A stretch of 32,000 bases of DNA from Archaeoglobus fulgidus DSM 4304 (GCF_000008665.1 NC_000917.1:270001-302000), one strand, 5' to 3'; counted from the stretch's first letter, positions 7,582 to 29,954 are shown. Numbers and translations: made by a program. The notes: generated from the sequence alone by a model not told the origin.

Positions 7582-8687
7582 TCAGCCTCGGCTCCCGTCT
7601 ATAATGATTTCAGCCACTTTTTCACCGTTCAAAAATACTTCTATCGGCTTCTCCAGATCCGGAACTACGTTATCTACTCTGAACCTCGCATTTTTGGCTA
7701 TTGGGTTATCGGGGTGTAGTTCTCCGAAAATGGGGGAAGGTAAGCCCCACTGGATTTCCTTTATACCTTCTGCGTCTTTTACAGTTAGCTTGACACCTTC
7801 AGCATTCTTTGGCAGTAGCAATCCACTGAGGATTAATCTGCCGTTGAGAAGGTTAGCCTGCAAAACATCGATCCTGAAAAACTCAAGATTTGCTTCAGGC
7901 AAGTAGTTAACGTTCACCTTTGGGAATATCTTTTCCTTCGCCATGATCCCCTCACGTTTCATAAACTCAAGAACTTTTTGATACCTCTCCTCAATCGCCC
8001 TCTCTATAACTTCCCTCGGAATCTGATCCTGCTGTCTGTAGAACTCTATCTCCTCTTCGCTCAATACAAACTGATTTTTGGTGCCAAAGTACTCCCTGAA
8101 CAGCTTTTCGTTGGATTCCCTGAACTGCTCTAGGAATTTTATTCTTTCTTCGAGTGTAAAGAAGGTCTTAAGGATGCTGCCCTCTCTTCTGTCGAGTTCG
8201 AGGAGGTAGTTTACGACTTTCCAACGATCCTGCGGAGACAAATTGAGCTCCTCGTTTATTCTCCTCATAACCAGTGTTGAAAGGTGGCTCAGCGATGGGT
8301 TAGCTTCGATCTTGTATTCTCTTGCTTCTGGCATGTCTATACCCAAAGCTTGCAGAAAGTCGAGAATAACGTTGCCTTCCGGGAATAGTTTTCGGTCGTA
8401 GATTCTTACGATGATTTCTGCTTCTGGGAAGGCTTGTTTCCAATTAGATAACTTAGAATAATAATCAAAATACTTTATTTTGAATTTTTCAGTGCTTCTA
8501 TTAAATGGGCTTTTAACCGCTTGTTTGTATCCTGATTCCAGCCATAAATCTTGTCTGCGTAAATAGCAGACTATTTTGGATACTCTGATATTTAAAAATT
8601 TTCTAAATTTAAGTATTTCATTTATATTTAAATTCAAAAAAGCCTCTGAACTTACAATCACTTTTTTTGGATTGTATTCCCGAATCT
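7582..8687 (-). pseudogene. Sulfotransferase-like gene, 3' portion (interrupted by the 1214-bp IS)
   Basis: ORF 7582..8724 has no real start (TTG read out of the IS end). After IS removal, its codons from EYNPKKVIVSSEAF onward join the 9902..10143 N-terminal piece in frame. Confidence 0.8.
8678..8687. repeat. Target-site duplication (left copy), TCCCGAATCT
   Basis: An identical 10-mer occurs at 9902-9911, directly outside the IS inverted repeats. Confidence 0.85.
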
Positions 8688-8707
8688 GGTTTTGGGACAA
8701 AATTCCT

Positions 8708-8881
8708 TTAATCCCTGACAACAATCACATACGCTCTCCACCCAATATACCTCTTGGGCACATCAACCTTTGCTGAATTACCGAAAGGCGTGACTCTCTT
8801 CTCGAAAACAACCTCAACCTCCTCTTTCAGAACAAAATCTCCCTTCTTCACTTCAACCCTCCTCATGTTAAGTATATCCAT
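8708..8881 (-). CDS. Small IS-encoded AbrB/SpoVT-like protein (DUF2080-like)
   Basis: The last 57 codons of ORF 8708..9118 read MDILNMRRVEVKKGDFVLKEEVEVVFEKRVTPFGNSAKVDVPKRYIGWRAYVIVVRD. FGNSAKVDVPK..IG resembles the looped-hairpin motif of small transposon-encoded proteins. Divergent from the transposase start; an alternative ATG lies at 8866. Confidence 0.5.
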   Translation of the reverse strand: MDILNMRRVEVKKGDFVLKEEVEVVFEKRVTPFGNSAKVDVPKRYIGWRAYVIVVRD

Positions 8882-8917
8882 AGAAATACTTAAATACTTT
8901 TTGGTTGGAATCAGAAC

Positions 8918-9886
8918 ATGAACCTTGGATTCAGAGTGACAGGGAAGTTTGTAAGGGAACTTCTGGATGTTTTGGATGAAATTGCAGAGGAGATAAGACA
9001 GGAGGAGAAGGAAAAGTATCCGTACACAGAATGGGAGAGGAAGAGAGAAGTTGTTAAGGAAAGGCTGAGAAAACTCCCTGAATACGTTAGAGAGGCTATT
9101 TCTGTGATAACCGTGCAAAAGAGGGTGGGAAGACCAAAGAAAGTTGATCTGGAGAAGAGAGTTATGCTCTTTCTGTTTGCAAGGCTGATGGACAAATCAA
9201 ACAGAGATATTGAGGAGCTTTTAGAGCTGTTTGAACCTTTATTCGGGATAAAGGTTAGCTACAAAACGATAGAAAGATTATACTCGGATGAAGAAGTTAG
9301 AATGGCTTTACACAACCTCTTCATCCTTCTGCTTAGAGAGGAAGGAGTTTCAGGAGATTTTTCAGGAGATGGGACAGGATACAGCCTAACCATCACTAAG
9401 CACTATAGAAGCAATCCTAAAAGGAAAGGTAAAGACTTCAGATACGTTTTCAGGATAATTGACATCGATACGGGAATGTACGTTGGCTTTGGCTATTCTG
9501 ACAGATCTGAGAAAGATGCCTTTGAGAAGGCTTTAGGAATGCTCAAAAGCATGGGGGTGAAGGTAAACTCGATTTCTCTGGATAAGTATTACAGCAGTAG
9601 GAAGACTCTGAGGCTGTTTGATGCTGAGACAGCTGTCTACGTCATTCCAAAGCGAAATCTTGCCAGAATAGGATTTGACTGGTTGAGGGTTATCGAGAGG
9701 ATTGTTGAAGCTCCTTATAGGTTTCTGAAGAGGTACTTCAAGAGGAACTTAAGTGAGGCAGGATTTTCTGCTGATAAGAGGAGATTTGGATGGTTGATAA
9801 GGCAGAGGAGGGAGGACAGGAGAGAGATGGCTTTGTTTGCTGTTGGGCTGTGGCACAATGTGTTTGCTGTTAGGGTGGTGAGGTAA
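8918..9886 (+). CDS. IS transposase (322 aa)
   Basis: Fills the IS between its inverted repeats. Basic and helical N-terminus, with GDGTGYS...D...E-type features. The stop lies 15 nt from the IS end. Confidence 0.85.
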   Translation: MNLGFRVTGKFVRELLDVLDEIAEEIRQEEKEKYPYTEWERKREVVKERLRKLPEYVREAISVITVQKRVGRPKKVDLEKRVMLFLFARLMDKSNRDIEELLELFEPLFGIKVSYKTIERLYSDEEVRMALHNLFILLLREEGVSGDFSGDGTGYSLTITKHYRSNPKRKGKDFRYVFRIIDIDTGMYVGFGYSDRSEKDAFEKALGMLKSMGVKVNSISLDKYYSSRKTLRLFDAETAVYVIPKRNLARIGFDWLRVIERIVEAPYRFLKRYFKRNLSEAGFSADKRRFGWLIRQRREDRREMALFAVGLWHNVFAVRVVR

Positions 9887-9901
9887 TTTTGTCCCAAAGT
9901 C

Positions 9902-9911
9902 TCCCGAATCT
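9902..9911. repeat. Target-site duplication (right copy), TCCCGAATCT
   Basis: Identical to 8678-8687. Confidence 0.85.
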
Positions 9912-10143
9912 CTGATTCTAATAAACTACAAACATTTCCAATTTGAAGGTCTTCGATACCCCTTGCTTTCGCAATATTTGGTCGAAGTGACAAAGGCAAC
10001 AAATGGTGGCCTGAATTGAACAAAGGCGTTGAGGGGTATAGGACGCCATGTTTTTTATATAAAAAGTATTTATTATTAATTAAGAATCTTTGTATAGTCG
10101 TCGTTCCAGTTTTCGGAAGTCCAATGTGAAGAAAAACATCCAT
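9902..10143 (-). pseudogene. Sulfotransferase-like gene, 5' portion (interrupted by the IS)
   Basis: MDVFLHIGLPKTGTTTIQRFL is the PKxGTTxx PAPS-loop-type N-terminus of sulfotransferase-family proteins. ORF 9715..10143 runs into the IS after ...SLLESEIRE. 242 nt remain before the IS, which completes a codon with base 8677. Confidence 0.8.
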
Positions 10144-10144
10144 A

Positions 10145-10906
10145 TCAGAACCCCTCCTTATACATATCTACAACTTTTTCCCACAGCACCATGTCCTCCT
10201 CATTAATTTCCATCAGCTTCTTGTAGAAATCTTTACCAACCTCATTCTTTATAATTTTCAACCTCTCCTCTAAAGGCATATCGGGACTAAACTGAACATT
10301 GGTCCTAATAACACTTGCTTTAAACTCAGGGAAATATTCTCTCACGGTCTCTTCCAACTTTGTCATTGACTTTTCAAATTCCTCTACCAACCCTATAAAA
10401 GGAAGTCTTTTTAGAGCTATAAGTGCTTTTTCCAGCGGTTTCATGTTCTTTTCGCCATGGAGCATATCTGCCAATCTGAAAACATGGAAATTGCTTACAT
10501 TGAACTCCTGTCTTGGTATAGCCAACCTTATTTCGACATAGCCTTTAAAGTCCGTATTGCGAGCAATGACCGGTCCAGGGCGAAAAATGTCCACCTGCTT
10601 CCTTTCATAATGGTATGCAGAATGAATCCGAATAATAGGATGTCTTACAAAAATAATAGGAATGATTTTGATACCTCTCCTTTCCAAAAGTGTGGAGTCA
10701 AACAACCTCGCCGTATGGGATGAGAACGCAACTGCATCGCTCTCATTTTCGATCCATTTAATTACTTCCTTTATATTTTCGTAGTAAGGCCACAGTTTAA
10801 ACTCTTTTTTTACAAATCTATCTCCAAAATTCTTTTCAAGTATATAATCCACGGCAGAACCAGCATTCTTAAAAAAGTGAAAATGGAACAGTATAACTCT
10901 ATTCAC
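10145..10906 (-). CDS. Sulfotransferase-family protein (Sulfotransfer_2-like)
   Basis: 253 aa. FHFHFFKNAGSAVD (P-loop-like) and FVRHPIIRIHSAYHYE (RxPxxRxxSxY) resemble carbohydrate sulfotransferase motifs. The stop lies 1 nt from the next gene start (operon). Confidence 0.55.
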   Translation of the reverse strand: MNRVILFHFHFFKNAGSAVDYILEKNFGDRFVKKEFKLWPYYENIKEVIKWIENESDAVAFSSHTARLFDSTLLERRGIKIIPIIFVRHPIIRIHSAYHYERKQVDIFRPGPVIARNTDFKGYVEIRLAIPRQEFNVSNFHVFRLADMLHGEKNMKPLEKALIALKRLPFIGLVEEFEKSMTKLEETVREYFPEFKASVIRTNVQFSPDMPLEERLKIIKNEVGKDFYKKLMEINEEDMVLWEKVVDMYKEGF

Positions 10907-11003: not shown

Positions 11004-11340
11004 TTACAATTCTTTCACCTTCCTCAACCAACAAGAGCCACCTCCAATCATTTTTTTGCATTTTTCTAATACTTTATTCGGAAAACGTGTCGATACATAG
11101 TAACTTGAAAATACAATTTTAAATATTTGGTTGTACATTAAAAAGGCCCTTAAAAGATACATCTCGTTCCATCCTCTGTTTTCTTTGAACACCCAGTCCT
11201 TTGGATATTCGTCAGGTATGAAGATGTCGTGAAAGTGAATCAACACTCCTTTATGTATCCTTGGCATTATTTCAAAGAAAATATGATTTACATCACTACC
11301 CACTTTAGCCACATGCGTTGAATCAATAAATAAAATGTCA
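11004..11340 (-). pseudogene. Class I SAM-methyltransferase gene, 3' portion (interrupted by the 963-bp IS)
   Basis: Reads ...DILFIDSTHVAKVGSDVNHIFFEIMPRI...; after IS removal it joins the 12319..12911 piece in frame (FETLEEN|DILFIDSTH). Confidence 0.8.
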
Positions 11341-11355
11341 TTTTCCTCTAAAGTC
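11341..11355. repeat. Target-site duplication (left copy), TTTTCCTCTAAAGTC
   Basis: An identical 15-mer occurs at 12319-12333, immediately outside the IS inverted repeats. Confidence 0.8.
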
Positions 11356-12318
11356 TGTAGTATCCCTAAATTATTTCACTACCCACAACCAACTTCATGT
11401 GAGAAAACTAACGAACAAAAAGATCAGATGGATCATCAAACAACTCGAAAAGGGAACCCCAGTAAGAGAAATAGCAGCTGTGATGAGAGTAACACCAAGA
11501 AGGATCTACCAACTCAAAAAACAATACGAAGAAACAGGAGAAATTCCAGAACTCAAACAACCTGGAAGAAAGCCCAAGCCAATAGACAAAGAAACTGAGC
11601 AAATAATCCTGCAAGCCTACGAAAAATACAAGCTCAGCCCAGTTCCGCTGGAAAGGCTGATAGAGAGGGATTACGGCATCCACATCCCCCACAACACTAT
11701 ATACAGAATCTTGCTAAAACACGGTTTGGTGGAGGAGAATATGAATAAGAAAAAGCGGAGGAAATGGGTTCGTTATGAAAGAAAACACTCAATGAGTTTA
11801 TGGCAGGGAGACTGGAAAAAGCTTGGAGAGAATTGGATAATAGCCTTCATGGACGATGCTTCCCGCTTCATCACCTGCTATGGAGTATTTGAGAAGGCAA
11901 CGACTGAGAACACGATCAAAGTTCTCAGGAAAGGGTTCGCTGAATATGGAATTCCAGATGAAATATTGACGGATCACGGAACTCAGTTTGTGGCTGCGAA
12001 GAGCAGGGAGAGGGCTAAGCACAGATTTAAGAAATTCCTGGTTGAGAATGGTGTTAGGCATATTCTTGCCAGAATAAACCATCCTCAAACCAATGGAAAG
12101 ATTGAGAGGTTCTTTGGACTGATGGAGCAAAAAATTGGTCTTTTTGAATCACTGGATGAATTCGTTTACTGGTATAATTACGTTAAACCTCACATGAGCC
12201 TTAATTTTGAAGAGCTGGAGACTCCTTATCAGGCTTTTCTCAGGAAGCTGCCTGCTGAAAGGGTGTTTGAGTACGGGAGGTGGTTGATTGAGGAGTGAAA
12301 TTATTTCGGGATATCACA
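11356..12318 (+). mobile_element. Insertion sequence, 963 bp (ISA0963-type by length, from memory), rve/DDE transposase
   Basis: Ends TGTAGTATCCCTAAATTATTTCACT and (reverse complement) TGTGATATCCCGAAATAATTTCACT match at 21/25 by my count. Flanked by a 15-bp direct repeat. A single transposase ORF has its stop inside the right inverted repeat. Confidence 0.85.
11399..12298 (+). CDS. DDE (rve integrase-core) transposase, IS481/IS3-like
   Basis: 299 aa with a GTG start. N-terminal HTH (GTPVREIAAVMRVTPRRIYQL), WQGDW...D, LTDHGTQF and HPQTNGKIERFF, the classic rve-core signature. Confidence 0.9.
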   Translation: MRKLTNKKIRWIIKQLEKGTPVREIAAVMRVTPRRIYQLKKQYEETGEIPELKQPGRKPKPIDKETEQIILQAYEKYKLSPVPLERLIERDYGIHIPHNTIYRILLKHGLVEENMNKKKRRKWVRYERKHSMSLWQGDWKKLGENWIIAFMDDASRFITCYGVFEKATTENTIKVLRKGFAEYGIPDEILTDHGTQFVAAKSRERAKHRFKKFLVENGVRHILARINHPQTNGKIERFFGLMEQKIGLFESLDEFVYWYNYVKPHMSLNFEELETPYQAFLRKLPAERVFEYGRWLIEE

Positions 12319-12333
12319 TTTTCCTCTAAAGTC
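12319..12333. repeat. Target-site duplication (right copy), TTTTCCTCTAAAGTC
   Basis: Identical to 11341-11355. Confidence 0.8.
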
Positions 12334-12911
12334 TCGAAAAATGATAAATCAACATCTTGCACTGGTTGATCAATTAACTCAGCATTTCTGTAAAATAAAA
12401 TTCCTCTTCTCAAATAATCAGATGGGTAAGGTTCAATAAGAGCTATTTCTATTTTATCATTATAGAACTTTTTATTCACATCCATAGCTATAAGTGACGA
12501 GAATCCTGAACCTATTTCTACAATCCTATTTGGTCTGTAGTGAATTATGAAAGCAAAGTATGCCAAAGCATCTAACTTTTCAAACACCCCATTATTTTTA
12601 TAATATATACATTTTAGATTATGTTCGGGGGTTTCTGGATAATCGAATAAGTCAACGTAAGAACCAATTATCTCCAAATGCTTCAATTGTTCTTCTTTAT
12701 TCAAGTCTATGCCAAGGACCTCATTATCAGTTCGAACTCTAAATATTTTTTCCTCCCGTCTCCTTACCTCTTTTATATTTGGAATAGGGGAGTAAAAATG
12801 ACCTGGTGGAAATATTTTTCCGACCTCCCTGTCCACACTTTCACCTCTAAATAATATTAATGATTTTATTTTTTGCAACATTGTATGAAAAATTACACTT
12901 AACATGCTCAA
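12319..12911 (-). pseudogene. Class I SAM-methyltransferase gene, 5' portion (interrupted by the IS)
   Basis: ORF 12240..12911 carries RIVEIGSGFSSL (SAM motif I) and reads into the IS after ...SFFETLEEN. The start is uncertain (12911, 12905 or 12881); all overlap the upstream gene end. Confidence 0.75.
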
Positions 12912-14262
12912 TCGACCTCATTGAAATTTTTTCCCATAGAGCTTTGTCTGTATATAGTTTGACTACTTTTTCAGCAAATTCTACCGGATCATCGGCGATT
13001 AGTGCATTCTCCCCATCAATCAATCCCATCCCCTCCCCTCCTATCGACGTTGTTACTACAGGCACACCATGAGCCATAGCTTCACCAATTTTTCCCTTAA
13101 CACCAGCGCCGTATCTAAGTGGCGATACGAATACCCGAACGCTTTCAAAGTAAGGCTCTAATTCTCTAACATACCCTGTTACAATTATATCATCCGAACT
13201 AAGCGACATAATTTCCTCAGGAGGGTTGCTCCCTACGATTATAAATTTTACTTCCGGTAGTTGTTGCTTAATTTTTGGAAATATATCATTAATGAACCAT
13301 TTTACTGCATCAATGTTGGGAGGGTGGGCAAAACCGCCTAAGAACATTATATCTTTACGATTCTCGAAACTATTTTTTGGAGGTTTTATCTCATGGATGT
13401 TGGACAGAACCTCCACATTTAGTGTTGGATCTTCTTTCAGTAGAAGTTCTTTTTCGAATGGCGAGACTACCAACGTCAAGTTGGCCAATCTCGCCAACTT
13501 CAGTTCAATATTCTTCAACTTTTCGGCCAACTCTTTAACTTTGTCATTTTTTTCTAATTCTGCTCTCCTCATTTCTCTCAAGAAGTGGAGATCCACTGTA
13601 TCAAAAATTATTTTCGCTTTACTGCAGTATTTACGAACTGCTAATATATGTTTCTCTGCTATCGGTGCCCTACTCAAGATAACTATGTCAAAGAATTTTC
13701 CGTGGTCTTTTAAGTAGTCCTCAATTGATCTGGTGTAGGGCCCGTAAAGCACTTCGATACCAATCTGCTGCAAAATACTGGTATACGGCTCCATTTTTGC
13801 CAAATTATCGCCTATGAACGTAACACAATGACCAAGCTCTATCAAAATTTTGAGTATATTATACATCCTGTAGGAACCGCTATCTTTGTCAAATGTTGGA
13901 ACATAGTGGTCAATCACCAAGATGCGCTTTCCTCCGTTCCTGCATCTCGCCAAAAACAAGTTTGAAGGATCAGGATTATAATGGTGCTTTAGCAAGGTAT
14001 CTTTCCATTTTTCGTAAAACTTCTGTCTATTTATTTCTTGAAACTTCTTTACGCCTGAACTCGTATCTGTTCCACATGTTGCCCCCTCTAAATGAATTAT
14101 CACGGATTTCGGTTGGTACATTACCTTGTAACCCATTTTTCGAACAGAAAAGCATAAATCTGTATCTTCATAGTAAGCAGGTTTAAACCTCCCGTCAAAT
14201 CCCCCAATTTTTTCGAAGATCTCTTTTTTGACCATCAGAGCAGCACCAGAGCAGTAATCCAC
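12847..14262 (-). CDS. C-terminal part of a frameshift-split giant glycosyltransferase: second half of a GT2 domain plus a GT4 (GT-B) domain
   Basis: The ORF-track 'start' is a GTG coding V in EVDYCSGAALMV...YEDTDLCFSVRKMGY (GT2 C-half). This is followed by a GT4 domain (GGFAHPPN, RYGAGVKGKIGEAMAHGVPVV). This frame stays open upstream as DEYNFVRE, continuing ORF 14267..16438. Confidence 0.8.
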   Translation of the reverse strand: MDYCSGAALMVKKEIFEKIGGFDGRFKPAYYEDTDLCFSVRKMGYKVMYQPKSVIIHLEGATCGTDTSSGVKKFQEINRQKFYEKWKDTLLKHHYNPDPSNLFLARCRNGGKRILVIDHYVPTFDKDSGSYRMYNILKILIELGHCVTFIGDNLAKMEPYTSILQQIGIEVLYGPYTRSIEDYLKDHGKFFDIVILSRAPIAEKHILAVRKYCSKAKIIFDTVDLHFLREMRRAELEKNDKVKELAEKLKNIELKLARLANLTLVVSPFEKELLLKEDPTLNVEVLSNIHEIKPPKNSFENRKDIMFLGGFAHPPNIDAVKWFINDIFPKIKQQLPEVKFIIVGSNPPEEIMSLSSDDIIVTGYVRELEPYFESVRVFVSPLRYGAGVKGKIGEAMAHGVPVVTTSIGGEGMGLIDGENALIADDPVEFAEKVVKLYTDKALWEKISMRSIEHVKCNFSYNVAKNKIINII

Positions 14263-14266
14263 TTCT

Positions 14267-16438
14267 CTAACAAAATTGTATTCGTCTTTCTGGGTCGTCG
14301 TATCTTCCGTAGTTCCACCCTGATGCGTCTTTCCATATTATTCCCCCAGCCTCTTGGAGTTTTCCATCCGGGTATGCGAGTTTAGCGCCTACTGCCCCAA
14401 CATCTTCTCGTTTTATCAACTCCAAAAGTGGTGGTAGCCATCCTGGAGTAACGATGGTATCATTATTTAAAAATAATATATATTTTCCTGAACTAGCTTT
14501 TGCACCAATATTACAGGATTCAACGAAGCCTACATTTTCTTTGTTTCGTATAATCTTCACGTTTTTGATTTTATCAAATAGAGTATCAACCTCCTTTTCT
14601 GTTGATGCATCGTCAACTAATATAACCTCATATGAGCAACCAGCAGTATTAGAGAGTATTGATTTCAAGCAATTATATGTTAATTCTGCATTATTATATA
14701 CAGGAATCACTATTGAAACTTCAGGATTTTCGAAATTAGGAAATTCTAATTCTGACACATCAGCTGTATTGAAAGATGTACTAGGAGTACCGTAAATGTC
14801 TTTAGTCTCAATTTGCATCTCTTCCAACTTTCTTTGCTTTCTGTACTCTGACGCGCTTCTCCACAAACCTCTGAATCCAGAACTAGCCAAAACCCTCAAC
14901 CCTTTAATCCCCAAATCATACCACCTTCTCCTCCTCGTCCCTAATGGAGCAACTCTCTCAACAAAGGAGTGCCACTTCATCACAGCTCTCCACGTAACGC
15001 TGGACTTTATCGAGTCCAGCTCTGCTGCCAGTCTAATATTCTCCTCCGTGAGATTTCTTATTTGCTCTTCCCTGGCAGCAAGTTCCGACTTAACCCTCTG
15101 CTCCTCCTTCCTAAGCTCTTCAATTGCTTTCTCTCTTGCTGTAAGCTCTCCATTCAGCCTCTCCACCAAGCTCTCCTTTTCCTTCAGCTCCCCCTCCAAG
15201 CTCCTTATTTTTTGCTCCAAGTTGATCGATTTTACCTTGAACTCGTTCAGCTCTTTGGTTTTCTCTTCGAGCGATTTTGTTAGAGCGGATACCCGTTCCC
15301 TCTCACTTTCAAGCTCCCCACTTATCCTCTCAAGCTCATCGTTGAGCCTTTCGATCTCAGCTTCCCTATCCCTGACCGCACTCCTCAGGCTCTCTATCTC
15401 CTGCTGCAACCTGCTTAATTCTCCATCCTTGATTTTCAACGCGTTTTCAAGCTCATAGACTCTTCCACTCTTCTCGGCCACCTCGGTGTTTAATTTATCC
15501 AGACTCGCACTCAGATCCCCTATTTGCCTCTCTTTCTGCTCAACAATTGAATTCAATCTGCCAACTTCCACCTCCAGCTCCCTTAACCTTTTTTCAAGAT
15601 GCCTGATGTATTTTCTGAAGTTGTTGATTAGGACACTACTAACATCGGTAAGATAACTTCGATAATCAATTTCTTTCAGCGGTGAATCTGATGCTATCGC
15701 AATAAAATACATAGGTTCCTTCCTTTCAGCCTCAACTCTAACAAAACTCCTCTCTCCCCTTTCTATTACGAATTCACTGCTTCTATCATTATCTTCTGTC
15801 AGGCACCAGATTTGCGAAGAAGGATAAACTCTCTGCCCGAAAAAGTAGATGTGCTTGAAGTATCTGCCAAGCAAAGCTTTAAACTCATCAAAGTACAGCT
15901 CCTTTACGTGAAACGGATTCTGATAGTTTGGTTCGTCACTGTAAACCTTTTTGTTGGGAGTCGACACAACGAAAATTCCATCCTTCTTCAAAACTCTCTT
16001 CACTTCCTGAAGCATTTCCTCATGTTCTGCAATGTGCTCAAGAACTTCAAAACAAATTACAGCATCGAAAATTTCCTCACCATCGACCGGTATGCTGGTA
16101 ACTGAACCGACACGATATTCAAGATTGCTTCTTATATATGTGCTGCTCGCGTGCTTTATAGATTTATCATCAATATCCACCCCAACAACTTTCTTGGCGT
16201 ATTTGGATAAAATATAGCTCCCATAACCCTCACCGCATCCGAGGTCCAAAACAACCTTCCCCTTGACAAACTGTGCTGCAAAATAATACCTGTGAAGGTG
16301 CTCATAGTGAATTTCCGCTCCAACCTCTTCAGGTTTTGCCGTTGGAATATATCTCCCCCCCGTCCACTCTAACATACTTTGCACCCGCCCCAAATTATTC
16401 GAAAGCCACCAATACTTTATAAAAGAGTTTCTATGCAC
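14267..16438 (-). CDS. N-terminal part of the split gene: SAM-methyltransferase, long coiled coil, first half of a GT2 domain
   Basis: VLDLGCGEGYGS / FDAVICFEVLEHI (methyltransferase). A heptad-rich E/K/L/R region of roughly 210-220 aa (about 14940-15590). Then VSIVIPVYNN...VILVDDAS...FLNNDT (GT2). Ends ...GRYDDPERRIQFC* inside the GT2 fold. Confidence 0.8.
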   Translation of the reverse strand: MHRNSFIKYWWLSNNLGRVQSMLEWTGGRYIPTAKPEEVGAEIHYEHLHRYYFAAQFVKGKVVLDLGCGEGYGSYILSKYAKKVVGVDIDDKSIKHASSTYIRSNLEYRVGSVTSIPVDGEEIFDAVICFEVLEHIAEHEEMLQEVKRVLKKDGIFVVSTPNKKVYSDEPNYQNPFHVKELYFDEFKALLGRYFKHIYFFGQRVYPSSQIWCLTEDNDRSSEFVIERGERSFVRVEAERKEPMYFIAIASDSPLKEIDYRSYLTDVSSVLINNFRKYIRHLEKRLRELEVEVGRLNSIVEQKERQIGDLSASLDKLNTEVAEKSGRVYELENALKIKDGELSRLQQEIESLRSAVRDREAEIERLNDELERISGELESERERVSALTKSLEEKTKELNEFKVKSINLEQKIRSLEGELKEKESLVERLNGELTAREKAIEELRKEEQRVKSELAAREEQIRNLTEENIRLAAELDSIKSSVTWRAVMKWHSFVERVAPLGTRRRRWYDLGIKGLRVLASSGFRGLWRSASEYRKQRKLEEMQIETKDIYGTPSTSFNTADVSELEFPNFENPEVSIVIPVYNNAELTYNCLKSILSNTAGCSYEVILVDDASTEKEVDTLFDKIKNVKIIRNKENVGFVESCNIGAKASSGKYILFLNNDTIVTPGWLPPLLELIKREDVGAVGAKLAYPDGKLQEAGGIIWKDASGWNYGRYDDPERRIQFC

Positions 16439-16441
16439 CAG

Positions 16442-17284
16442 CTACCTTTCTCTACGACGAGTTTGACAGATGGAGTGTTCCATTTCCGTGGAGATATCCT
16501 CAACTTCAGCGCGTATGTCCTGAACACTTGTATTATTCCTTTTCCTGAATTCCTCTAAATCACCAAATATGCTTTCCTCTCCAACAACGATTCTGGGCCC
16601 GATTACTGTTTTTTCTGGACATTCCTTTCTGATCACACATAAAGAATTGTAAAACTCAACTGATCGTATCGTAGCGAGCTCTGAGTCGTCAAAACTCAGG
16701 TTATACTTTTCAGCAAACTTCGAAAGTAACCACTTCCTCGATTTGCCCAATCTCCAATGCTCGTAGTTAATAACATCAATGAGGGTTTTGAAGAAATTAA
16801 TTGCTGAATAGTATTCAAACAAACCGCCGCCAAAGTTTTTCCAGTAACTGCAACACAGGTCTTCGACAATATATATCCCACCGTAATTCAACAGAGGGTA
16901 GTAATTTGCAAAGGCTCTAATTATATCGGACGATTTATGTGAGCCATCGTCTATTATTATGTCCAAACTGCTAACAATTTCTCTCACCCTTTTAGCAGTC
17001 AATAAATCACCTGCATCTCCTATCACGATCTTTATTCGCTCGTCGTCGTAAGTAAGCTCAGAGCATCTTTCATCTATGTCGCAGCCAATTATATTTTTTG
17101 CATTTGTAAAATATTTCGCCCAGATTTCAAGGCTCCCACCATTCTGAACTCCAATCTCCAAAATGTTTACTTCTTTATCCTTGTAGTCTGAAAATAACTG
17201 CTCATATATTTCTAAATAGGAAGTCCATTTATCCGTCACCTTTCCTTTATGCGTTCTAAATAACTCCACGAGTCTATAAGTCAT
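16442..17284 (-). CDS. Class I SAM-methyltransferase, CmcI / sugar O-methyltransferase-like
   Basis: 280 aa. HKGKVTDKWTSYLEIYE, ILEIGVQNGGSLEIW (motif I) and IIIDDGSH are typical of the CmcI-like family found in glycan clusters. First gene of the minus-strand operon. Confidence 0.75.
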   Translation of the reverse strand: MTYRLVELFRTHKGKVTDKWTSYLEIYEQLFSDYKDKEVNILEIGVQNGGSLEIWAKYFTNAKNIIGCDIDERCSELTYDDERIKIVIGDAGDLLTAKRVREIVSSLDIIIDDGSHKSSDIIRAFANYYPLLNYGGIYIVEDLCCSYWKNFGGGLFEYYSAINFFKTLIDVINYEHWRLGKSRKWLLSKFAEKYNLSFDDSELATIRSVEFYNSLCVIRKECPEKTVIGPRIVVGEESIFGDLEEFRKRNNTSVQDIRAEVEDISTEMEHSICQTRRRER

Positions 17285-17361: not shown

Positions 17362-17426
17362 GCGTGCTACAAAGTGCGCCAATCCAAGCCACGAAGTAGC
17401 GAATGCCAAATTTTAGAAATTGTGAT
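17362..17426 (+). repeat. Inter-module block, copy 0 (GCGTGCTACaAAGTG ... GCCACGAAGTAGCGAAtGCCAAATTTTAGAAATTGTGAT)
   Basis: The same block recurs after toxin 1 (18130-18199) and toxin 2 (18865-18961), and partly after module 5 (21005-21027). Confidence 0.7.
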
Positions 17427-17451
17427 TGAGCAATCAAAAAAGACTGCAGCC

Positions 17452-17464
17452 GAAACCTATTTCT
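17452..17464 (+). promoter_or_regulatory. Conserved GAAACCTATTTCT box (putative BRE/TATA) of module 1
   Basis: Identical 13-mer 21 nt upstream of the antitoxin ATG in all five modules. Confidence 0.5.
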
Positions 17465-17485
17465 TCTTTCATGCAAACTAATAAC

Positions 17486-17677
17486 ATGCCAAAAGTCATT
17501 GAAGCCATTTACGAAAACGGAGTGTTCAAGCCCCTCCAGAAAGTTGAACTCAGGGAGGGGGAGAAGGTAAAAGTCATTGTGGATCGGGGACTTACCCAGT
17601 TATTCGGGATGTTCCGACACAGGCGTAAGACGGACCTGGACGAAGATATGGATCTGATGATAACGGAGAGAGCATGA
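17486..17677 (+). CDS. AF2212-like (DUF104) antitoxin, module 1
   Basis: [30 protein letters not shown]... The ATG at 17486 is preferred to the TTG at 17426 because all paralogues start at MPK(I/V)IEA. The stop overlaps the toxin ATG (ATGA). Confidence 0.8.
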
Positions 17678-18126: not shown

Positions 18127-18129
18127 ACT

Positions 18130-18199
18130 GCGTGCTACGAAGTGAGCAAGCTGAAAGCTTGCCACGAAGTGGCGAACGCCAAATTTTAGAAATTGTGAT
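18130..18199 (+). repeat. Inter-module block, copy 1, with hairpin 18142-18165
   Basis: GCGTGCTACGAAGTG-aGCAAGCT-GAA-AGCTTGC-CACGAAGTGGCGAACGCCAAATTTTAGAAATTGTGAT. A 7-bp stem plus a GTG/CAC extension. Confidence 0.7.
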
Positions 18200-21050: not shown

Positions 21051-22025
21051 CTATCGGAGAACCCCTGCTAACCTCGCAACCTTCAGAGCCTTGCCAAAAC
21101 CAAGCCCCTCGATGTAGTCTTCAACTGCCTTAAACCTCACTTTTTGCTGAACTTCCCTCCTCTTCTCCAGAAACTTCCTGAGCTCTCTGATAGCGTCGAT
21201 TTTTGACTTCAAAATTGCAAAATTGCCCCTCAGGCAGAAGAACAGCATCGAGCTGAAATTTCTCAGGATGAAGTAAGGAAACTCCCTCAGAAGTAAATCC
21301 CTGGGCACGTTCTTAACCACACTCCACACCCAGTTCCTGCTGTTGTAATACACAGAGAAATCCGATAAGAAGCCCGTAGATGCTGAGTGTAGGTGATAAG
21401 CTATGGCCGTTGGAACGTACAGAATCTTCCAACCTCTAATCAATGCTCTTAAACTCAAATCCACATCCTCGTTATACATGAAGTAGTCCTCATCAAACAA
21501 ACCCACGTCCTCGAAAAGGCTTCTGCGATACATTGCAGCCGCAGCGCATGCTCCGGCAACGTAGCAAGGCTCGTCAAACTGCCCCTCATCCTTCTCCAAA
21601 AACCCCCTCTCCATCACAGCCAGACCTCTGTGTATTGCATGTCCCGCCGAGTTTATTCGCCCGTCCTCAAACAGTATTTTGGATGCAAAGATTCCCGCCC
21701 TTAAATCATCTGCAGCCTTCAGCATCTCTTCTGCCCAGTTTCTTTCCAGAAAGGCATCGTTGTTTACGAGGGCAACGAATTTAGTGTTTGCCATTTCAAT
21801 TCCCTGATTGGCAGCCTTGGCAAACCCCAAATTCTCCTCATTCCGAATAACCTCAAACCGAGAGTAATAATCCTCAAAATTCCTCAAAATATCTCTGGAT
21901 CCATCTGTTGAACCGTTGTCTATCACCAGAACTCTGAGTTTTCTGTAAGTCTGGTTTATTATGGAATTCAGGCATTCTTTCAGGTATTTTTCCCCGTTGT
22001 AGTTAACCACTATGAAGGTCAGCAT
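21051..22025 (-). CDS. GT2 glycosyltransferase (rhamnosyltransferase-like)
   Basis: 324 aa. FIVVNYNGEKYLKECLNSIINQTY, VIDNGSTDGS, LVNNDAF, and a DVDLSLR-type second half. Overlaps the upstream GT2 gene by 7 nt. Confidence 0.85.
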   Translation of the reverse strand: MLTFIVVNYNGEKYLKECLNSIINQTYRKLRVLVIDNGSTDGSRDILRNFEDYYSRFEVIRNEENLGFAKAANQGIEMANTKFVALVNNDAFLERNWAEEMLKAADDLRAGIFASKILFEDGRINSAGHAIHRGLAVMERGFLEKDEGQFDEPCYVAGACAAAAMYRRSLFEDVGLFDEDYFMYNEDVDLSLRALIRGWKILYVPTAIAYHLHSASTGFLSDFSVYYNSRNWVWSVVKNVPRDLLLREFPYFILRNFSSMLFFCLRGNFAILKSKIDAIRELRKFLEKRREVQQKVRFKAVEDYIEGLGFGKALKVARLAGVLR

Positions 22026-22879
22026 CTTCTCCCTTTCCTACTTAAAATTCCGTGAACCACCCCTTTAAGGTATTGGATGATGTCACCTTTCCTCTTCAGC
22101 CTCACCAAATAGTATAAAACCCTCAGCGGCTCGGTAATCAGCGCATAGAAAAACATCGCTTTTCCAGCTCTTCTCGCCACTATCAGCCAGTTTCTGGCAG
22201 TATAGTAAAGATAATGGGGGCTGAACAGTCCCAGGGAGGCAGATACCTTGTGTCTCACCACAGCTTTGCATACGGCGAGCCTGTAACCCTTCTTCCTCGC
22301 TCTTATGCACCACTCCGTCTCCTCGTGCATCATGAAAAGCTCCTCGTCAAAGAAGCCCACGTCCTTCAAAGCCGAGCTTCTTATCAGCATCGCACATCCA
22401 ACAAGCCCAAAAGGAGAGTCGAAACTTATCTCAACCTCAACCATCTTGTTCTTCAAATGCAAAACAGGATATCCAAGAAAAATGCGTGTGCCAGCAGACC
22501 ATATTCTTTCGTCGCCGTAGTACTTCACCACAGGCTGACAGGCTGCAATTGTCTCATCTTCTTCCATCTCTGAGACCATTCTTTCTACTGCATCCCTCTC
22601 AAAAACCACGTCGTTGTTGGAAATCAGCACGTAATCGGCTTTGTCAATAACAGCTCTAATGCCAGCATTGCAACCTCCCGCATACCCCCTGTTCTCACCG
22701 AGTTCTAGCATTTCAACCTGAGGATACTTCCTTCTGAGCTTCTCTATCACCTCTCTCTCCGATCCGTTGTCCACCACAACTACCCTGCACGGATATGTCT
22801 GGTTCAAGAGGGAGTCTATGCATTCAGCGGTATCATCGAAATTGTTGTAGTTCACAACGATTGCGTAAACAGTCCTCAT
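22019..22879 (-). CDS. GT2 glycosyltransferase (rhamnosyltransferase-like)
   Basis: 286 aa. AIVVNYNNFDDTAECIDSLLNQTY, VVDNGSE, ISNNDVVF, MHEETEWCIRARKKGY. The start overlaps the rfbC stop. Confidence 0.85.
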   Translation of the reverse strand: MRTVYAIVVNYNNFDDTAECIDSLLNQTYPCRVVVVDNGSEREVIEKLRRKYPQVEMLELGENRGYAGGCNAGIRAVIDKADYVLISNNDVVFERDAVERMVSEMEEDETIAACQPVVKYYGDERIWSAGTRIFLGYPVLHLKNKMVEVEISFDSPFGLVGCAMLIRSSALKDVGFFDEELFMMHEETEWCIRARKKGYRLAVCKAVVRHKVSASLGLFSPHYLYYTARNWLIVARRAGKAMFFYALITEPLRVLYYLVRLKRKGDIIQYLKGVVHGILSRKGRRC

Positions 22880-23373
22880 TTATGCGGAGGATAAAACCAG
22901 TCCCACGGCTTTCCGCAGCGAGGGTCGTCTTCCCTGCCGTTTATCTTTGCAGGCACAATTGTGGAGTCGTTCCAGGGCCTCCTCACCTCGTCGGGATTCT
23001 CGTAGTCATACAGTCTGCTGACGAAATACACCAGCACTGCAGGCTCCACCCCAATCGCCTTGAAGCCGTGCCAGTAATGTCCCGGCACCCTCACAACCTG
23101 AAGGTTTTTGCCCGTCGAAACTATTTCTGCCAGCTCCTGAGTTTCATCATCGTAGGCACATATCTTTATCGCCCCGCCTATGCAGACGAAGTAGTCCACC
23201 TGCCCCCTCTCATGCTTGTGCCAAGCCCTCACGATTCCCGGATAGGTCACGGACATGTTCGCCTGAAGGATTTCATCCTCAAAAACATCCCAGTCTCTTC
23301 GCATTATCTCCGTGAAGAAACCCCTCTCGTCTGCGAAGGTTTTGAGCGGTTTAACAACGATACCTGGCAGCAT
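22876..23373 (-). CDS. rfbC: dTDP-4-dehydrorhamnose 3,5-epimerase (short cupin form)
   Basis: FADERGFFTEI, AWHKHERGQVDYF, PGHYWHGFKAIG. The ATG at 23373, preceded by GGTGGT, is preferred to the TTG at 23388 of the ORF track. Confidence 0.85.
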   Translation of the reverse strand: MLPGIVVKPLKTFADERGFFTEIMRRDWDVFEDEILQANMSVTYPGIVRAWHKHERGQVDYFVCIGGAIKICAYDDETQELAEIVSTGKNLQVVRVPGHYWHGFKAIGVEPAVLVYFVSRLYDYENPDEVRRPWNDSTIVPAKINGREDDPRCGKPWDWFYPPHK

Positions 23374-23384
23374 ACTACCACCAA

Positions 23385-24242
23385 TCAAACCAAACCCTTC
23401 TCAGCTAAATAATCTCTTAAAGCTTCCCTCCAGTGCCTCATCTTAATGCCAATTCTTTCGAGTTTGTAGTTTTGCAGGGCAGAGAAAGCTGGCCTTCTCG
23501 CCAATCTGTTAAGCTCGCTCGACTTTATTGGCTGAATTTCCACATCCCAGTCGAGAATTTCGAATATTGCCTTCGTAAACTCAAACCACGAGCAGTATCC
23601 GTCGTTTACCATGTGGTAAATTCCGTAGTCGGGGCGGAGTTTGAGAAACTCTCTAACAGCGAGGGCCACGTCCTTGGTATAGGTGGGGCTCATAAACTGG
23701 TCCGCAACAATCCTCAGCTCCTGCCCCTTTCTCGCCATATCCACCACCCAGTTTACGAAGTTACCGCCCTTTCCGCTCGCCCCGGCCTTCCCGTATAGAC
23801 TTGCAACCCTGATCACGTAGTGTTTTTCCGAGTAGTTTTTCGTGAGAATTTCTCCGGCATACTTGCTCGCTCCGTAAACGTTTATAGGATTTGGCTTATC
23901 TGTCTCGACATAGGGCTCTCCCTTCTCACCATCGAAAACGTAGTCTGTACTGATGTAAATGTTAACCGCATCAATTTCCGAAGAGATTCTGGCCACATTA
24001 AGCGCCCCGATGGCGTTGACCGCAAAGGCCTTTTCCGCATGATTCTCCGCATCATCAACTCTGACATAGGCAGCGGTGTTTATGATAACGTCGGGGTGGA
24101 TGTCTCTCAGCACTTCAAGGCTTTCAGACACTGCAACATCAACATCCTCATGAGTAAGCGGATAAACTGTGAACTCCTCCTTAAGAACGTCAACAAGGTC
24201 CGTTCCAAGCTGGCCTTTGGCTCCTATTACCGCTACCTTCAT
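23385..24242 (-). CDS. rfbD: dTDP-4-dehydrorhamnose reductase
   Basis: 285 aa. MKVAVIGAKGQLG Rossmann start, STDYVFDG, YGASKYAGE (YxxxK). Sits between rfbB and rfbC. Confidence 0.9.
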   Translation of the reverse strand: MKVAVIGAKGQLGTDLVDVLKEEFTVYPLTHEDVDVAVSESLEVLRDIHPDVIINTAAYVRVDDAENHAEKAFAVNAIGALNVARISSEIDAVNIYISTDYVFDGEKGEPYVETDKPNPINVYGASKYAGEILTKNYSEKHYVIRVASLYGKAGASGKGGNFVNWVVDMARKGQELRIVADQFMSPTYTKDVALAVREFLKLRPDYGIYHMVNDGYCSWFEFTKAIFEILDWDVEIQPIKSSELNRLARRPAFSALQNYKLERIGIKMRHWREALRDYLAEKGLV

Positions 24243-24243
24243 T

Positions 24244-25242
24244 CTACCATCTCAGCTTCCATGGCGTGGGATGCAAAATCCTCTCATCAGCCAGAGGCCT
24301 CCACCACCACTCGTTTTGCAGGTACCACTCAACAGTCCTCCTTATCCCTTCTTCAAAGCTAATCTTTGGCCTCCATTTCAGCTCTCTCATTATCTTCCAC
24401 GAGTCGAGGGAGTAGCGAACGTCATGTCCTGGTCTATCCTCAACATACTCAATCAGGCTCTCGTCTTTCCCCATGATTTCCAGAATCGTTTTTACAATCT
24501 CAAGGTTCGTTCTTTCCTCTCCGCTTGAAATGTTGTAAACTTCTCTTCTCTCCCCCTTCTCCATAACCTCCCAGACTGCTCTACAGTGGTCCTCGACGTA
24601 AATCCAGTCCCTCACGTTCATTCCGGTTCCGTAGATTGGGACGCTCAGATTCATTTTTGCCCTTATTATGGTCTTCGGAATCAGTTTTTCCGGGAATTGA
24701 TAGGGCCCATAGTTGTTCGTGCACCTTGTAATGGATGCGTTTAGGTTGTAAGTCCTTGCATAGCCGAGGACCAGCATGTCTGCAGCAGCTTTACTTGCTG
24801 AGTAGGGTGAGGAAGGCATCAACCCGTCCTTTTCCGTAAAGGAGCCTTTTTCAATGTCCCCGTAAACCTCATCCGTGCTGACGTGCACCAATCTTACCTC
24901 AGGATTGCACTTTCTCACTGCTTCGAGAATCGTATACACTCCAAGAAAGTTACTCTCGATGAAGGCATAGGGACTGGATATACTCCTGTCCACATGGCTC
25001 TCTGCAGCGAAGTTCACCACCGCATCTACCTTCTTAATCAGATCAGAGACGAGTTCATAGTCGTTTATATCCCCTTTGATGAAGCTGTATCTCTCATCCT
25101 CTGCCAAGTCTTTCAGATTTTCCGGATTGGAGCCGTACTTCAGAGCATCGAGGTTCAGAATCTCTACCTGGTGGTGAGCAAGAGCGTACCTAACGAAGTT
25201 GGAGCCGATGAACCCCATTCCTCCCGTAACAAGAATTCTCAT
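24244..25242 (-). CDS. rfbB: dTDP-glucose 4,6-dehydratase
   Basis: MRILVTGGMGFIGSNF, STDEVYG, YSASKAAADM. The ATG at 25242 with an upstream GAGGTG is preferred to the TTG at 25254. Confidence 0.9.
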   Translation of the reverse strand: MRILVTGGMGFIGSNFVRYALAHHQVEILNLDALKYGSNPENLKDLAEDERYSFIKGDINDYELVSDLIKKVDAVVNFAAESHVDRSISSPYAFIESNFLGVYTILEAVRKCNPEVRLVHVSTDEVYGDIEKGSFTEKDGLMPSSPYSASKAAADMLVLGYARTYNLNASITRCTNNYGPYQFPEKLIPKTIIRAKMNLSVPIYGTGMNVRDWIYVEDHCRAVWEVMEKGERREVYNISSGEERTNLEIVKTILEIMGKDESLIEYVEDRPGHDVRYSLDSWKIMRELKWRPKISFEEGIRRTVEWYLQNEWWWRPLADERILHPTPWKLRW

Positions 25243-25250
25243 CTTCCACC

Positions 25251-26309
25251 TCAAAGCAGGATCTCGGAGTAATCCCCAATGGTGAATCTTAGGAACCTCT
25301 TTCTGTCGTTCTTTCTGATTCTGACTTTCCTCCCAATGAGACTCTCCTCAATTCTCTCCACACCCTCGATAATTGACTCGCTGAGAACTATGCAGTATTC
25401 AAGCGAGCTGTTTTTAATGACCGTTCTTTCACCAACGCTCGTGTAGGGCCCGATGAACGAGTTCTCGATTATGCAGTCTTCCCCGATGACCGCTGGCCCC
25501 CTTACGATGCTGTTAGTTATTTTTGCCCCTTCTCCAACCTCAACTCTTCCCTCAATTTGCGACGCCAAAACCTCTCCCTTTACACTCCTTTTTGCCCTCT
25601 CATCGAGAATCGTTGCGTTCACCTTCAGTATGTCCTCTGCCTTGCCTGTGTCGAACCACCAACCCTTCAGTTTAGCATATCCCACATTGTAACCGTTTTC
25701 AATCATTTTTTGTAGCGTGTCGGTGATTTCAAGTTCTCCTCTCCAGCTCGGTTTTAGGTCTTTGATTATGTCAAAAACAACTGGTTTGAACATATATACA
25801 CCAATTACCGCGTAGTTGCTTGGAGGTTCTTTTGGCTTCTCAATGAGTCCGACCAGTCTCTCGCCCTCAAACTTGGCAACACCAAAGGCTCTTGGATCCT
25901 CAACCTCCTTGAGAAGTATGAAGGCGTCAAAATCTTCCTCGTCAAATCTCTTAACGTATTCCTTTATACCATCCTGAATCAGGTTGTCGCCGAGATAAAC
26001 TACAAACTTTTCATCACCGACGAAGTCTTTGGCAAGATAGACTGCATGAGCAATACCGAGTGGCTTACCCTGATGGATGTATGTAATCTTGCATCCGAAC
26101 CTCGAACCATCTCCGTAGTGCTCTTCCACCATTTCTGGATAGGTCTCCCCCAAAATTATGGCTACCTCTTTGATTCCTGCACCAATCATGTCCTCAAGGC
26201 AATACTGGGAAACCGGCTTGTTGGCTACGGGAATCAGCTGCTTTGGCCCCGTAAAGGTTAGTGGTCTTAATCGGGTGCCGGCACCACCGTGAAGCAGTAC
26301 GCCCTTCAC
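25251..26309 (-). CDS. rfbA: Glucose-1-phosphate thymidylyltransferase (long form with C-terminal left-handed beta-helix)
   Basis: 352 aa with a GTG start. LHGGAGTRLRPLTFTGPKQLIPVANKP nucleotidyltransferase signature; hexapeptide-like repeats in the C-terminal third. Confidence 0.9.
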   Translation of the reverse strand: MKGVLLHGGAGTRLRPLTFTGPKQLIPVANKPVSQYCLEDMIGAGIKEVAIILGETYPEMVEEHYGDGSRFGCKITYIHQGKPLGIAHAVYLAKDFVGDEKFVVYLGDNLIQDGIKEYVKRFDEEDFDAFILLKEVEDPRAFGVAKFEGERLVGLIEKPKEPPSNYAVIGVYMFKPVVFDIIKDLKPSWRGELEITDTLQKMIENGYNVGYAKLKGWWFDTGKAEDILKVNATILDERAKRSVKGEVLASQIEGRVEVGEGAKITNSIVRGPAVIGEDCIIENSFIGPYTSVGERTVIKNSSLEYCIVLSESIIEGVERIEESLIGRKVRIRKNDRKRFLRFTIGDYSEILL

Positions 26310-29944: not shown

Positions 29945-29954
29945 TACTGCCTTC

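Follow-up and report, generated by a model that had tools for sequence, protein, structure and literature searches.

Two adjacent open reading frames (ORFs) on the minus strand of Archaeoglobus fulgidus DSM 4304 constitute a single gene that is broken inside its GT2 glycosyltransferase (GT) domain by a 2-nucleotide (nt) deletion. The ORFs lie in a 32,000-nt stretch (NC_000917.1:270001-302000), hereafter the window, to which all coordinates refer. The encoded domain order is methyltransferase, coiled coil of ~207 residues, amphipathic/basic joint, GT2 and GT4, as determined using Pfam, AlphaFold2 and Foldseek. We consider it probable that this is a recently inactivated gene, the intact form of which is a single-polypeptide glycan polymerase-terminator of ATP-binding cassette (ABC)-transporter-dependent polysaccharide assembly.

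One gene, split within its GT2 domain

ORF1 (14267..16438) and ORF2 (12847..14262) were both identified on the minus strand. Counted from a GTG, ORF1 has 723 codons and terminates in ...GWNYGRYDDPERRIQFC (shorter form, GRYDDPERRIQFC) at a TAG stop (14267-14269); past this end the +1 frame reads EYNFVREVDYCSGA, and the reading EYNFVREVDYCSGAALMV in that frame stays open down to 12847. The junction codons in the window are GAC GAC CCA GAA AGA C GAA TAC, compared with GAT GAT CCT AAC AAA CCA GAG TAT in a metagenome-assembled genome (MAG) of the Archaeoglobi (Archaeoglobi archaeon S5B8_HD70; locus L009). Every intact homologue inspected has one extra residue at the junction (P, S or A; e.g., DDPDK-P-EYNF, NPKK-S-QYNF and DPDK-A-EYNY), with a consensus of DDP(D/E/N)K-P-EYNF. 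Based on the MAG codons and this extra residue, two nucleotides of a conserved Pro codon have been lost next to 14284:

14283..14284, minus strand: lesion; the orphan C (14284) of the former Pro codon, with 2 nt gone between 14284 and 14283, resulting in a frame shift and the premature TAG at 14267-14269 (codon-wise comparison with L009 and protein homologues)

The earlier note had proposed that the two ORFs are halves of one frameshifted gene, with the frame change placed between 14278 and 14293. This is borne out by single-ORF homologues that span the junction, and by the location of the lesion at 14284; because the homologues are contiguous across the junction, and the model of the repaired protein has a confident GT-A fold there, ORF1 and ORF2 are one gene. 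The merged gene is nevertheless shorter than the 1190-1200 codons that had been proposed: homologues and the allele of A. fulgidus DSM 8774 (L005, CP006577) begin MLEWTG(E)RYIP, so the true start is ATG 16375, giving a repaired gene of ~1176 codons. An uninterrupted frame through all catalytic domains, as in a functional protein-coding gene, is absent owing to the deletion and the TAG at 14267-14269. The lesion site (CCAGAAAGACGAA) contains no homopolymer, slippery run or repeat; a phase-variable site was rejected as unsupported, there being no repeat at the lesion.

The repaired protein was modeled using AlphaFold2, with the two frames joined at the lesion (1175 residues, 58-sequence alignment). 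The model has a mean predicted local distance difference test score (pLDDT) of 84.4 and a predicted template modeling score of 0.62. pLDDT exceeds 90 for the methyltransferase (residues ~15-242), GT2 (~553-800) and GT-B (~817-1174) domains, including the blocks that span the repaired junction, where it is 91-95. The features of the repaired gene, in coding order, are:

15650..16375, minus strand: N-terminal class I S-adenosylmethionine (SAM)-methyltransferase, the presumed chain-terminating cap enzyme (residues 1-242; Pfam Methyltransf_31/11/25/23, E 1e-17 to 1e-22; pLDDT >90)
15002..15634, minus strand: coiled-coil spacer (residues 248-458, ~207-210 residues; heptad scan and AlphaFold2 helix)
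14795..14998, minus strand: conserved joint of two helices, one amphipathic with the SxxW motif (460-475) and one rich in Arg (481-527), which may be membrane-proximal or a point of recombination (AlphaFold2 helices)
14285..14734, minus strand: N-terminal two thirds of the GT2 (GT-A) domain, ending at Arg697 (AGA 14287-14285; Pfam Glycos_transf_2, 100 bits, E 1.8e-28, profile positions 1-123 of 168; pLDDT >90)
13975..14283, minus strand: C-terminal third of the GT2 domain in the +1 frame (EYNFVREVDYCSGA...YYEDTDL; Pfam Glyco_tranf_2_3, profile positions 156-216)
12847..13932, minus strand: GT4-type GT-B glycosyltransferase with the stop codon (Pfam Glyco_trans_1_4, E 3.8e-32; Glycos_transf_1, 8e-12)

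Both profile and fold searches agree with the methyltransferase, GT2 and GT4 assignments that had been made from the sequence. In Foldseek searches the GT2 domain matches GT-A enzymes, and the C-terminal domain matches the GT4 GT-B structures BshA and MshA, with template modeling scores of ~0.7. Because the Pfam GT2 profile is divided between ORF1 and ORF2, the break sits in the middle of the GT-A fold; Y734 and D739, which are invariant, as well as E736 and D737, conserved at 90%, are all retained in the C-terminal third of this domain. Codon 7 (16355-16357) encodes Gly, at a position that is Glu in 55 of 57 homologues (96%) and in DSM 8774, such that MLEWTGERY becomes MLEWTGGRY (E7G).

The heptad-rich region, for which ~215 residues had been proposed, is confirmed at 207-210 residues. 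The heptad scan identified a proline-free run of 207 residues (252-458) rich in E, L, R and K, whereas the longest run among 200 composition-preserving shuffles was 54, and none of the 200 reached 207; AlphaFold2 predicts residues 248-457 to be one unbroken helix. Each residue of a helix contributes a rise of ~0.15 nm, and the fully extended coil would therefore measure ~30 nm. Tandem repeats in the coil DNA could have offered a route to length variation, but a search for them gave only a trivial match (12 nt, 2.7 copies). In the joint that follows, the amphipathic helix (460-475) contains a Trp (SVTWRAVMKWHSFVERV); the joint has a hydrophobic moment of 1.27 and net charges of +2 and +6, and the motif SIKSSVTWRAVMKWH...RRRRWYDLG is kept in the homologues P0002, P0008 and P0018, and in L015.

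A search of protein collections gave 328 matches at E<=1e-20. Among the best 120 of these, most are single ORFs of 1000-1400 amino acids (aa) that span the junction, with methyltransferase, GT2 and GT1-type Pfam domains; the homologues are distributed across many bacterial phyla, as well as archaea (a fragment from Methanophagales, the Archaeoglobi MAG and an uncultured archaeon). The architecture is thus present intact elsewhere, in both bacteria and archaea, and the proposal that these are normally two genes was rejected on the basis of hundreds of fused single-ORF homologues. In a 120-sequence alignment the modules have near-fixed lengths (methyltransferase ~216 aa, GT2 ~266 aa, GT4 ~365 aa), whereas the spacer that links the methyltransferase to the SxxW motif is anywhere from 27 to 544 aa long (median 162; 236 in the DSM 4304 gene). 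Of 119 homologues, 110 have 28 or more heptad-scoring residues in the spacer, the length of which correlates with the number of coil residues (r = 0.83); in P0009 and P0012 the coil has been lengthened by internal duplications.

Exporter, insertions and probable loss of function

Intact family members often adjoin rml genes, and genes for Wzm and Wzt (ABC-2 permease and ABC ATPase, respectively) were identified within 10 kb in each of the ten intact loci whose flanks were long enough (L009, L010, L011, L013, L014, L016, L017, L018, L021 and L022). In the locus of the closest intact homologue (L021), Wzm/Wzt are encoded just upstream of the large gene, with only a small methyltransferase gene between; in L010 and L022 they are immediately upstream, and the L010 ATPase bears a Wzt_C (cap-binding) domain. 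The ruler logic that the earlier note had attributed to the domain order thus finds comparative support in the variable spacer between fixed modules, and in the co-occurrence of Wzm/Wzt. Also as noted earlier, no Wzm/Wzt genes were found in the window; the syntenic locus of DSM 8774 and the 10 kb that follow the AglB gene likewise yielded none. A word-indexed search using the Wzm of the Archaeoglobi MAG as query included no A. fulgidus protein among the best 120 homologues; a protein of A. profundus is 54% identical to it. Upstream of the large gene, where L021, L010 and L022 have their transporter, the window has a CmcI-like methyltransferase gene followed by a VapBC array (17.4-20.4 kb); on the far side of the sulfotransferase-like gene, the transporter position in the MAG, it has genes for a 397-aa membrane protein and a short UDP-glucose dehydrogenase (ugd).

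Two neighbouring genes of the same cassette are split by insertion sequences (IS):

11004..12911, minus strand: gene for a 307-aa Methyltransf_24 protein, directly downstream of the large gene, split by a 960-bp IS (11357..12316; transposase 11399..12298, plus strand; 18-bp direct repeats; identified from direct and inverted repeats)
7582..10143, minus strand: gene for a 445-aa sulfotransferase-like protein (P-loop GLPKTGTT), split by a 1214-bp IS (8688..9901; 10-bp target duplication, 14-bp perfect inverted repeats)

Excision of the 960-bp IS with one repeat copy restores the 307-aa ORF exactly, and Methyltransf_24 is matched by the restored protein; L021 also has a Methyltransf_24 gene directly after its large gene. 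In-silico removal of the 1214-bp IS with one repeat copy likewise restores the 445-aa ORF exactly, and an intact 461-aa homologue is encoded in L009. The target duplications of both IS are perfect (18 bp and 10 bp), and both elements are absent from DSM 8774. The frameshift, the IS insertions in the two neighbouring genes and the E7G change, in a large gene that is otherwise almost pristine, together point to a recent loss of function, with selection now relaxed. The large gene of DSM 4304 is most likely dead, as the earlier note had allowed, and the pathway non-functional, given that truncation deprives the ORF1 product of the conserved GT2 segment YYEDTD, that IS elements cut two cassette neighbours, and that Wzm/Wzt were not found at the locus.

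In the intact enzyme, we propose that GT2 and GT4 would act near the membrane, alternately extending a lipid-linked and probably rhamnose-containing chain, with the helices at 460-527 holding the polymerase end at the membrane and the methyltransferase held at a distance of ~30 nm, on the opposite end of an oligomeric coil. The non-reducing end would be capped only once the chain reaches roughly the length of the coil, upon which growth would stop and the chain length would be set. The capped chain could then be exported by Wzm/Wzt, and possibly passed to protein by the neighbouring oligosaccharyltransferase AglB-S1.

Certain points weigh against a recently inactivated polymerase-terminator. 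The repaired protein retains 144 of 146 columns of at least 90% conservation, E7G being one of the exceptions, so either the inactivation is very recent or some function persists; and ORF2 has a GTG 4 nt past the ORF1 stop, which could still give rise to a separate product containing GT4. The transporter's absence is based on the best 120 homologues of a word-indexed search, as distinct from a full genome scan. Rhamnose as donor sugar is suggested by the neighbouring rml genes and by analogy to WsaE of Geobacillus stearothermophilus and to the Klebsiella pneumoniae O7 system, and the oligomeric state and ruler function of the coil in this family are putative. Furthermore, methylation by WsaE in vitro was reported not to depend on chain length, and an additional length factor has been proposed (PMC2943079).

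The WsaE result also favors a polymerase-modifier in which the coil serves only for oligomerization or scaffolding, with chain length set by (for example) enzyme stoichiometry or export kinetics, as do the very short spacers (27-70 aa) of some family members. This is the strongest of the alternatives, although we regard it as improbable: fixed-length modules joined by a spacer of hypervariable length are to be expected of a ruler, and coils in the same position are established rulers in WbdD and WbbB (PMC11231755).

Still less likely is that the split is tolerated or bypassed, either by +1 ribosomal frameshifting at AGA-C-GAA or by cooperation between the two halves (methyltransferase, coil and partial GT2; and GT2 tail with GT4, reinitiated at GTG 14262). 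Nearly all conserved positions (144 of 146) are kept across the two halves, the GTG lies 4 nt past the ORF1 stop, and the GT4 domain is complete on ORF2. However, the homologues all have an extra P, S or A where the 2 nt are absent, which indicates a deletion and not a recoding site, and there is no slippery run; the break lies within the GT-A fold, and parts the half that bears the DxD motif from the conserved YYEDTD segment; and neighbouring pathway genes are likewise knocked out by IS elements, with no exporter found at the locus or among the best 120 Wzm homologues.

An error of sequencing or assembly in the reference, with the gene intact in the organism, would be in keeping with an early genome, in which single-site frameshifts are a classic artefact; however, it is very improbable, given that the site is not a homopolymer and that the same truncated 702-aa ORF was recovered in four contigs from different public read sets (Logan SRR606249, ERR9765746 and SRR13570407; JGI 3300004930). 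These contigs are 100% identical to the window from 12289, 12534 or 13456 to 16456 or 17476 (up to 5.2 kb around the lesion), and because four independent assemblies are identical, the frameshift is a real feature of the DNA of this strain. Two of the contigs end at 12289 and 12296, within the right inverted-repeat arm (12289-12318) of the 960-bp IS, which is expected since the repeat breaks assemblies.

Cassette exchange at the joint and the flanking genes

Nucleotide identity between DSM 4304 and DSM 8774 is 100% from the upstream methyltransferase gene to ~15400, a stretch that takes in the methyltransferase domain and the coil's first two thirds; in a comparison per 100 nt, the sole mismatch from 17300 to ~15400 is the codon 7 change (E7G). 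Below ~15400, in the remaining third of the coil and in the joint, identity per 100 nt is 92, 86, 65, 76 and 91%. There is no similarity from 14858 to 8566, and 99% identity resumes at 8565. The boundary between strain-conserved and strain-variable DNA thus falls inside the large gene, which indicates that the GT modules and tailoring genes have been exchanged as a cassette, with the methyltransferase-coil head kept. The DSM 8774 protein (P0018, 1395 aa) has the same methyltransferase-coil head, but the joint is followed by a WbsX-like domain, GT4 and GT2.

In the DSM 8774 allele the reading frame closes within the final GT2 (...KQWVKALPR*), and the ORF that follows (L005 14133-14792) continues ...DDFCEKNFLEEL in another frame; ~10 residues are absent before the DxD motif at this break (L005 13900-14800). 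The DSM 8774 gene may therefore be damaged too. The sulfotransferase-like gene of DSM 8774 is split as well (L005 16850-17143 and 17176-18270).

Other members of the family carry further combinations of the modules. In an uncultured archaeon (binchicken_co25_133; L015 2262-5645), a methyltransferase-coil-SxxW head of close similarity is joined to a GT cassette of a third, unrelated kind; the large gene there is preceded by a GT2 gene resembling that at 22019-22879 of the window. The closest archaeal relative of the DSM 4304 cassette is a 72%-identical GT2-GT4 cassette in the MAG S5B8_HD70 (L009/L012 4721-12557), in which a sulfotransferase domain (Pfam Sulfotransfer_1, 25.6 bits, in L009) and a short coil replace the methyltransferase head. 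The MAG locus and the window share synteny over two stretches. The first, upstream of the large gene, holds rmlD, rmlC and two GT2 genes; in the second, a sulfotransferase-2 gene and the gene for the 461-aa sulfotransferase-like protein come after the large gene. After the second stretch, the MAG encodes Wzt, Wzm and adenosine-5'-phosphosulfate (APS) kinase. The sulfotransferase head, APS kinase and Wzm/Wzt suggest that sulfate is used as a chain-terminating cap in this archaeon. The same or a closely similar head occurs on three GT cassettes, and the DSM 4304-type cassette also occurs on a sulfotransferase head; thus, the joint behaves as a recombination point for the two-way exchange of modules.

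These Archaeoglobi alleles provide a natural series (one head with different GT cassettes, one cassette with a methyltransferase or sulfotransferase head, and differing spacer lengths) that could be used for testing how coiled-coil rulers and terminators recombine. It is possible, as a tentative extension, that the Archaeoglobi have a bacterial-style, ruler-controlled polysaccharide pathway (rml genes, GT2 genes and a coiled-coil polymerase-terminator) wired to N-glycosylation via AglB-S1, in which modules swap around a joint that stays fixed (the SxxW and Arg-rich helices together with the final third of the coil), with sulfation as a previously undescribed cap; the DSM 4304 copy would then reflect the loss, in the laboratory strain or recently, of a surface antigen that varies between strains.

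The following genes flank the large gene and the two IS-split genes:

10145..10906, minus strand: sulfotransferase family 2 gene of the same cassette (Pfam Sulfotransfer_2, E 1.2e-5), with a homologue directly after the polymerase in the MAG (L009)
16442..17284, minus strand: upstream co-oriented methyltransferase gene (CmcI/rhamnosyl O-methyltransferase-like; Pfam Methyltransf_24, E 9e-7; RMNT_CmcI, 24.2 bits against a cutoff of 23.2), 100% identical in DSM 8774
21051..26309, minus strand: deoxythymidine diphosphate (dTDP)-rhamnose genes rmlA (25251-26309), rmlB (24244-25254), rmlD (23385-24242) and rmlC (22876-23388), and two GT2 genes (22019-22879, rhamnosyltransferase-like; 21051-22025), assigned using Pfam
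27781..31730, plus strand: a GT4 gene, an AglJ-like dolichyl-phosphate hexosyltransferase gene and the oligosaccharyltransferase gene AglB-S1 (29955-31730, 591 aa; Pfam STT3, AglB_core)

The presence of a dTDP-rhamnose operon alongside a rhamnosyltransferase-like GT2 gene, as previously noted, is upheld, with the rml genes at 22876-26309 and 'rhamnosyltransferase' as the best NCBIfam match of the GT2 at 22019-22879, below the curated cutoff; the region (21051..26309) shows synteny in L009 and L015. In the NCBIfam scan of nine window proteins none reached a curated cutoff, with only generic GT or methyltransferase likeness; this includes the AglJ-like gene (AglJ, 194 bits, below cutoff). The 591-aa STT3/AglB protein is identified as AF_0329 based on gene order, which leads to Pfam AF_0334 and PCNA; AF_0329 is AglB-S1, of 591 residues (PMC3703281). 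A search of the literature on A. fulgidus rhamnose-containing glycans or AglB-S1 function found nothing beyond the AglB-S1 structural paper. The AglB-S1-linked cluster of the type strain is best treated as degenerate, which matters when a glycan or function is assigned to AglB-S1 via DSM 4304.

Between the rml/GT2 genes and the methyltransferase genes lie four tandem VapBC-like units (17426-20359; AF2212-like antitoxin and PIN toxin) of repeated sequence, where DSM 8774 has five pairs; assemblies end at the edge of this array (17469/17476). The 397-aa membrane protein (6358-7551, plus strand) has no Pfam match and is common to both strains; its C-terminal domain (7186-7530) has 31% identity (E 7e-12) to the domain between the ATPase and Wzt_C of the L010 Wzt, and based on this similarity it could be a glycan-binding module. 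At the cluster edges, the uridine diphosphate (UDP)-glucose dehydrogenase gene (5415-6389) encodes a protein of 324 aa that lacks the C-terminal domain, likewise in DSM 8774, and the mannose-1-phosphate guanylyltransferase/isomerase region (26355-27133) is fragmented into ORFs of 193 aa and 105 aa in different frames. The short ugd and the fragmented guanylyltransferase suggest older decay at both edges of the cluster.

Comparison with known polymerase-terminators

The architecture of the large gene is already biochemically characterized in WsaE (PMC2943079) and K. pneumoniae O7 ORF6 (PMC11231755); nor is its occurrence in archaea new, since homologues of O7 ORF6 have been reported in Methanoculleus marisnigri (PMC11231755; JBC 2024). 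The present findings extend the ABC-transporter-dependent capped-polymer strategy to hyperthermophilic archaea; they do not overturn current understanding, and what value remains comes from the module exchange at the coil joint and from the variant with a sulfotransferase head. In annotation, both ORFs should become a single entry, marked as a pseudogene of a WsaE/O7-ORF6-type polymerase-terminator.

WsaE of G. stearothermophilus NRS 2004/3a has an N-terminal 2-O-methyltransferase and two rhamnosyltransferase domains, and wzm, wzt and wsaE are adjacent; the methyltransferase caps a poly-rhamnan that the two GT domains of the same protein help to build, with export by Wzm/Wzt (PMC2943079). The Geobacillus chain is placed on the S-layer protein by an oligosaccharyltransferase, and rmlABCD are in the cluster (PMC2943079; PMC3898925). 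Compared by description only, the A. fulgidus protein resembles WsaE in that a single polypeptide carries an N-terminal methyltransferase, the presumed capping enzyme, followed by two GT domains, and in that its gene lies beside dTDP-rhamnose genes (22876-26309); the final transfer by an oligosaccharyltransferase is paralleled by AglB-S1 beside the A. fulgidus cluster. Full-length Paenibacillus homologues (P0039, P0051 and P0060; 38-39% identity) also suggest, on the level of sequence, membership of the WsaE type. The differences are that wzm-wzt, directly upstream in Geobacillus, were not found at the A. fulgidus locus, and that the A. fulgidus copy is frameshifted.

In ABC-transporter-dependent O-antigen systems, the terminator is located at the coil's distal end and the polymerase GTs are membrane-proximal, such that only coil-spanning chains are capped; the coil has been shown to be a length-setting ruler in O9a WbdD and O12 WbbB, and is described as a marker of the strategy (PMC11231755). 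Of the components of this coiled-coil polymerase-terminator class, the A. fulgidus system has a modifying domain at the polymerase-distal end (a SAM-methyltransferase, as putative terminator), an extended coil between terminator and polymerase, and polymerizing GTs at the membrane-proximal end of the coil (with GT2 interrupted in DSM 4304); Wzm/Wzt encoded with the system were not found at the DSM 4304 locus.

K. pneumoniae O7 ORF6 comprises a methyltransferase-kinase, a carbohydrate-binding module (CBM), a coiled coil and two GT2 rhamnosyltransferase modules (PMC11231755). It shares with the A. fulgidus protein the order of terminator, coiled coil and two polymerizing GTs, and the O7 antigen is a rhamnose polymer that is ABC-transporter-dependent. 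However, a kinase and CBM are undetectable in the A. fulgidus protein, the second GT is GT4 (GT-B) instead of GT2, and the cap would be methyl instead of methyl-phosphate. WbbB (K. pneumoniae/Raoultella O12) also combines a terminator, a coil ruler and two C-terminal polymerase GTs in one protein (PMC11231755), but its terminator is a β-Kdo (3-deoxy-D-manno-oct-2-ulosonic acid) glycosyltransferase, in contrast to the methyltransferase of A. fulgidus, and WbbB was not matched in sequence searches. Like the A. fulgidus protein, WbdD of the WbdD/WbdA system (Escherichia coli O9a/K. pneumoniae O3) has a methyltransferase terminator on an extended coil, and a membrane-proximal amphipathic helix by the polymerase (PMC11231755). 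In a PDB sequence search, the A. fulgidus methyltransferase domain matches that of WbdD at E 2e-5 (query 41-178, WbdD 69-213), although this is no stronger than the matches to many generic class I methyltransferases, which include the best ones. The two systems differ in that WbdD has a kinase and recruits a separate polymerase in O9a, whereas the GTs of the A. fulgidus protein are fused to its methyltransferase and coil.

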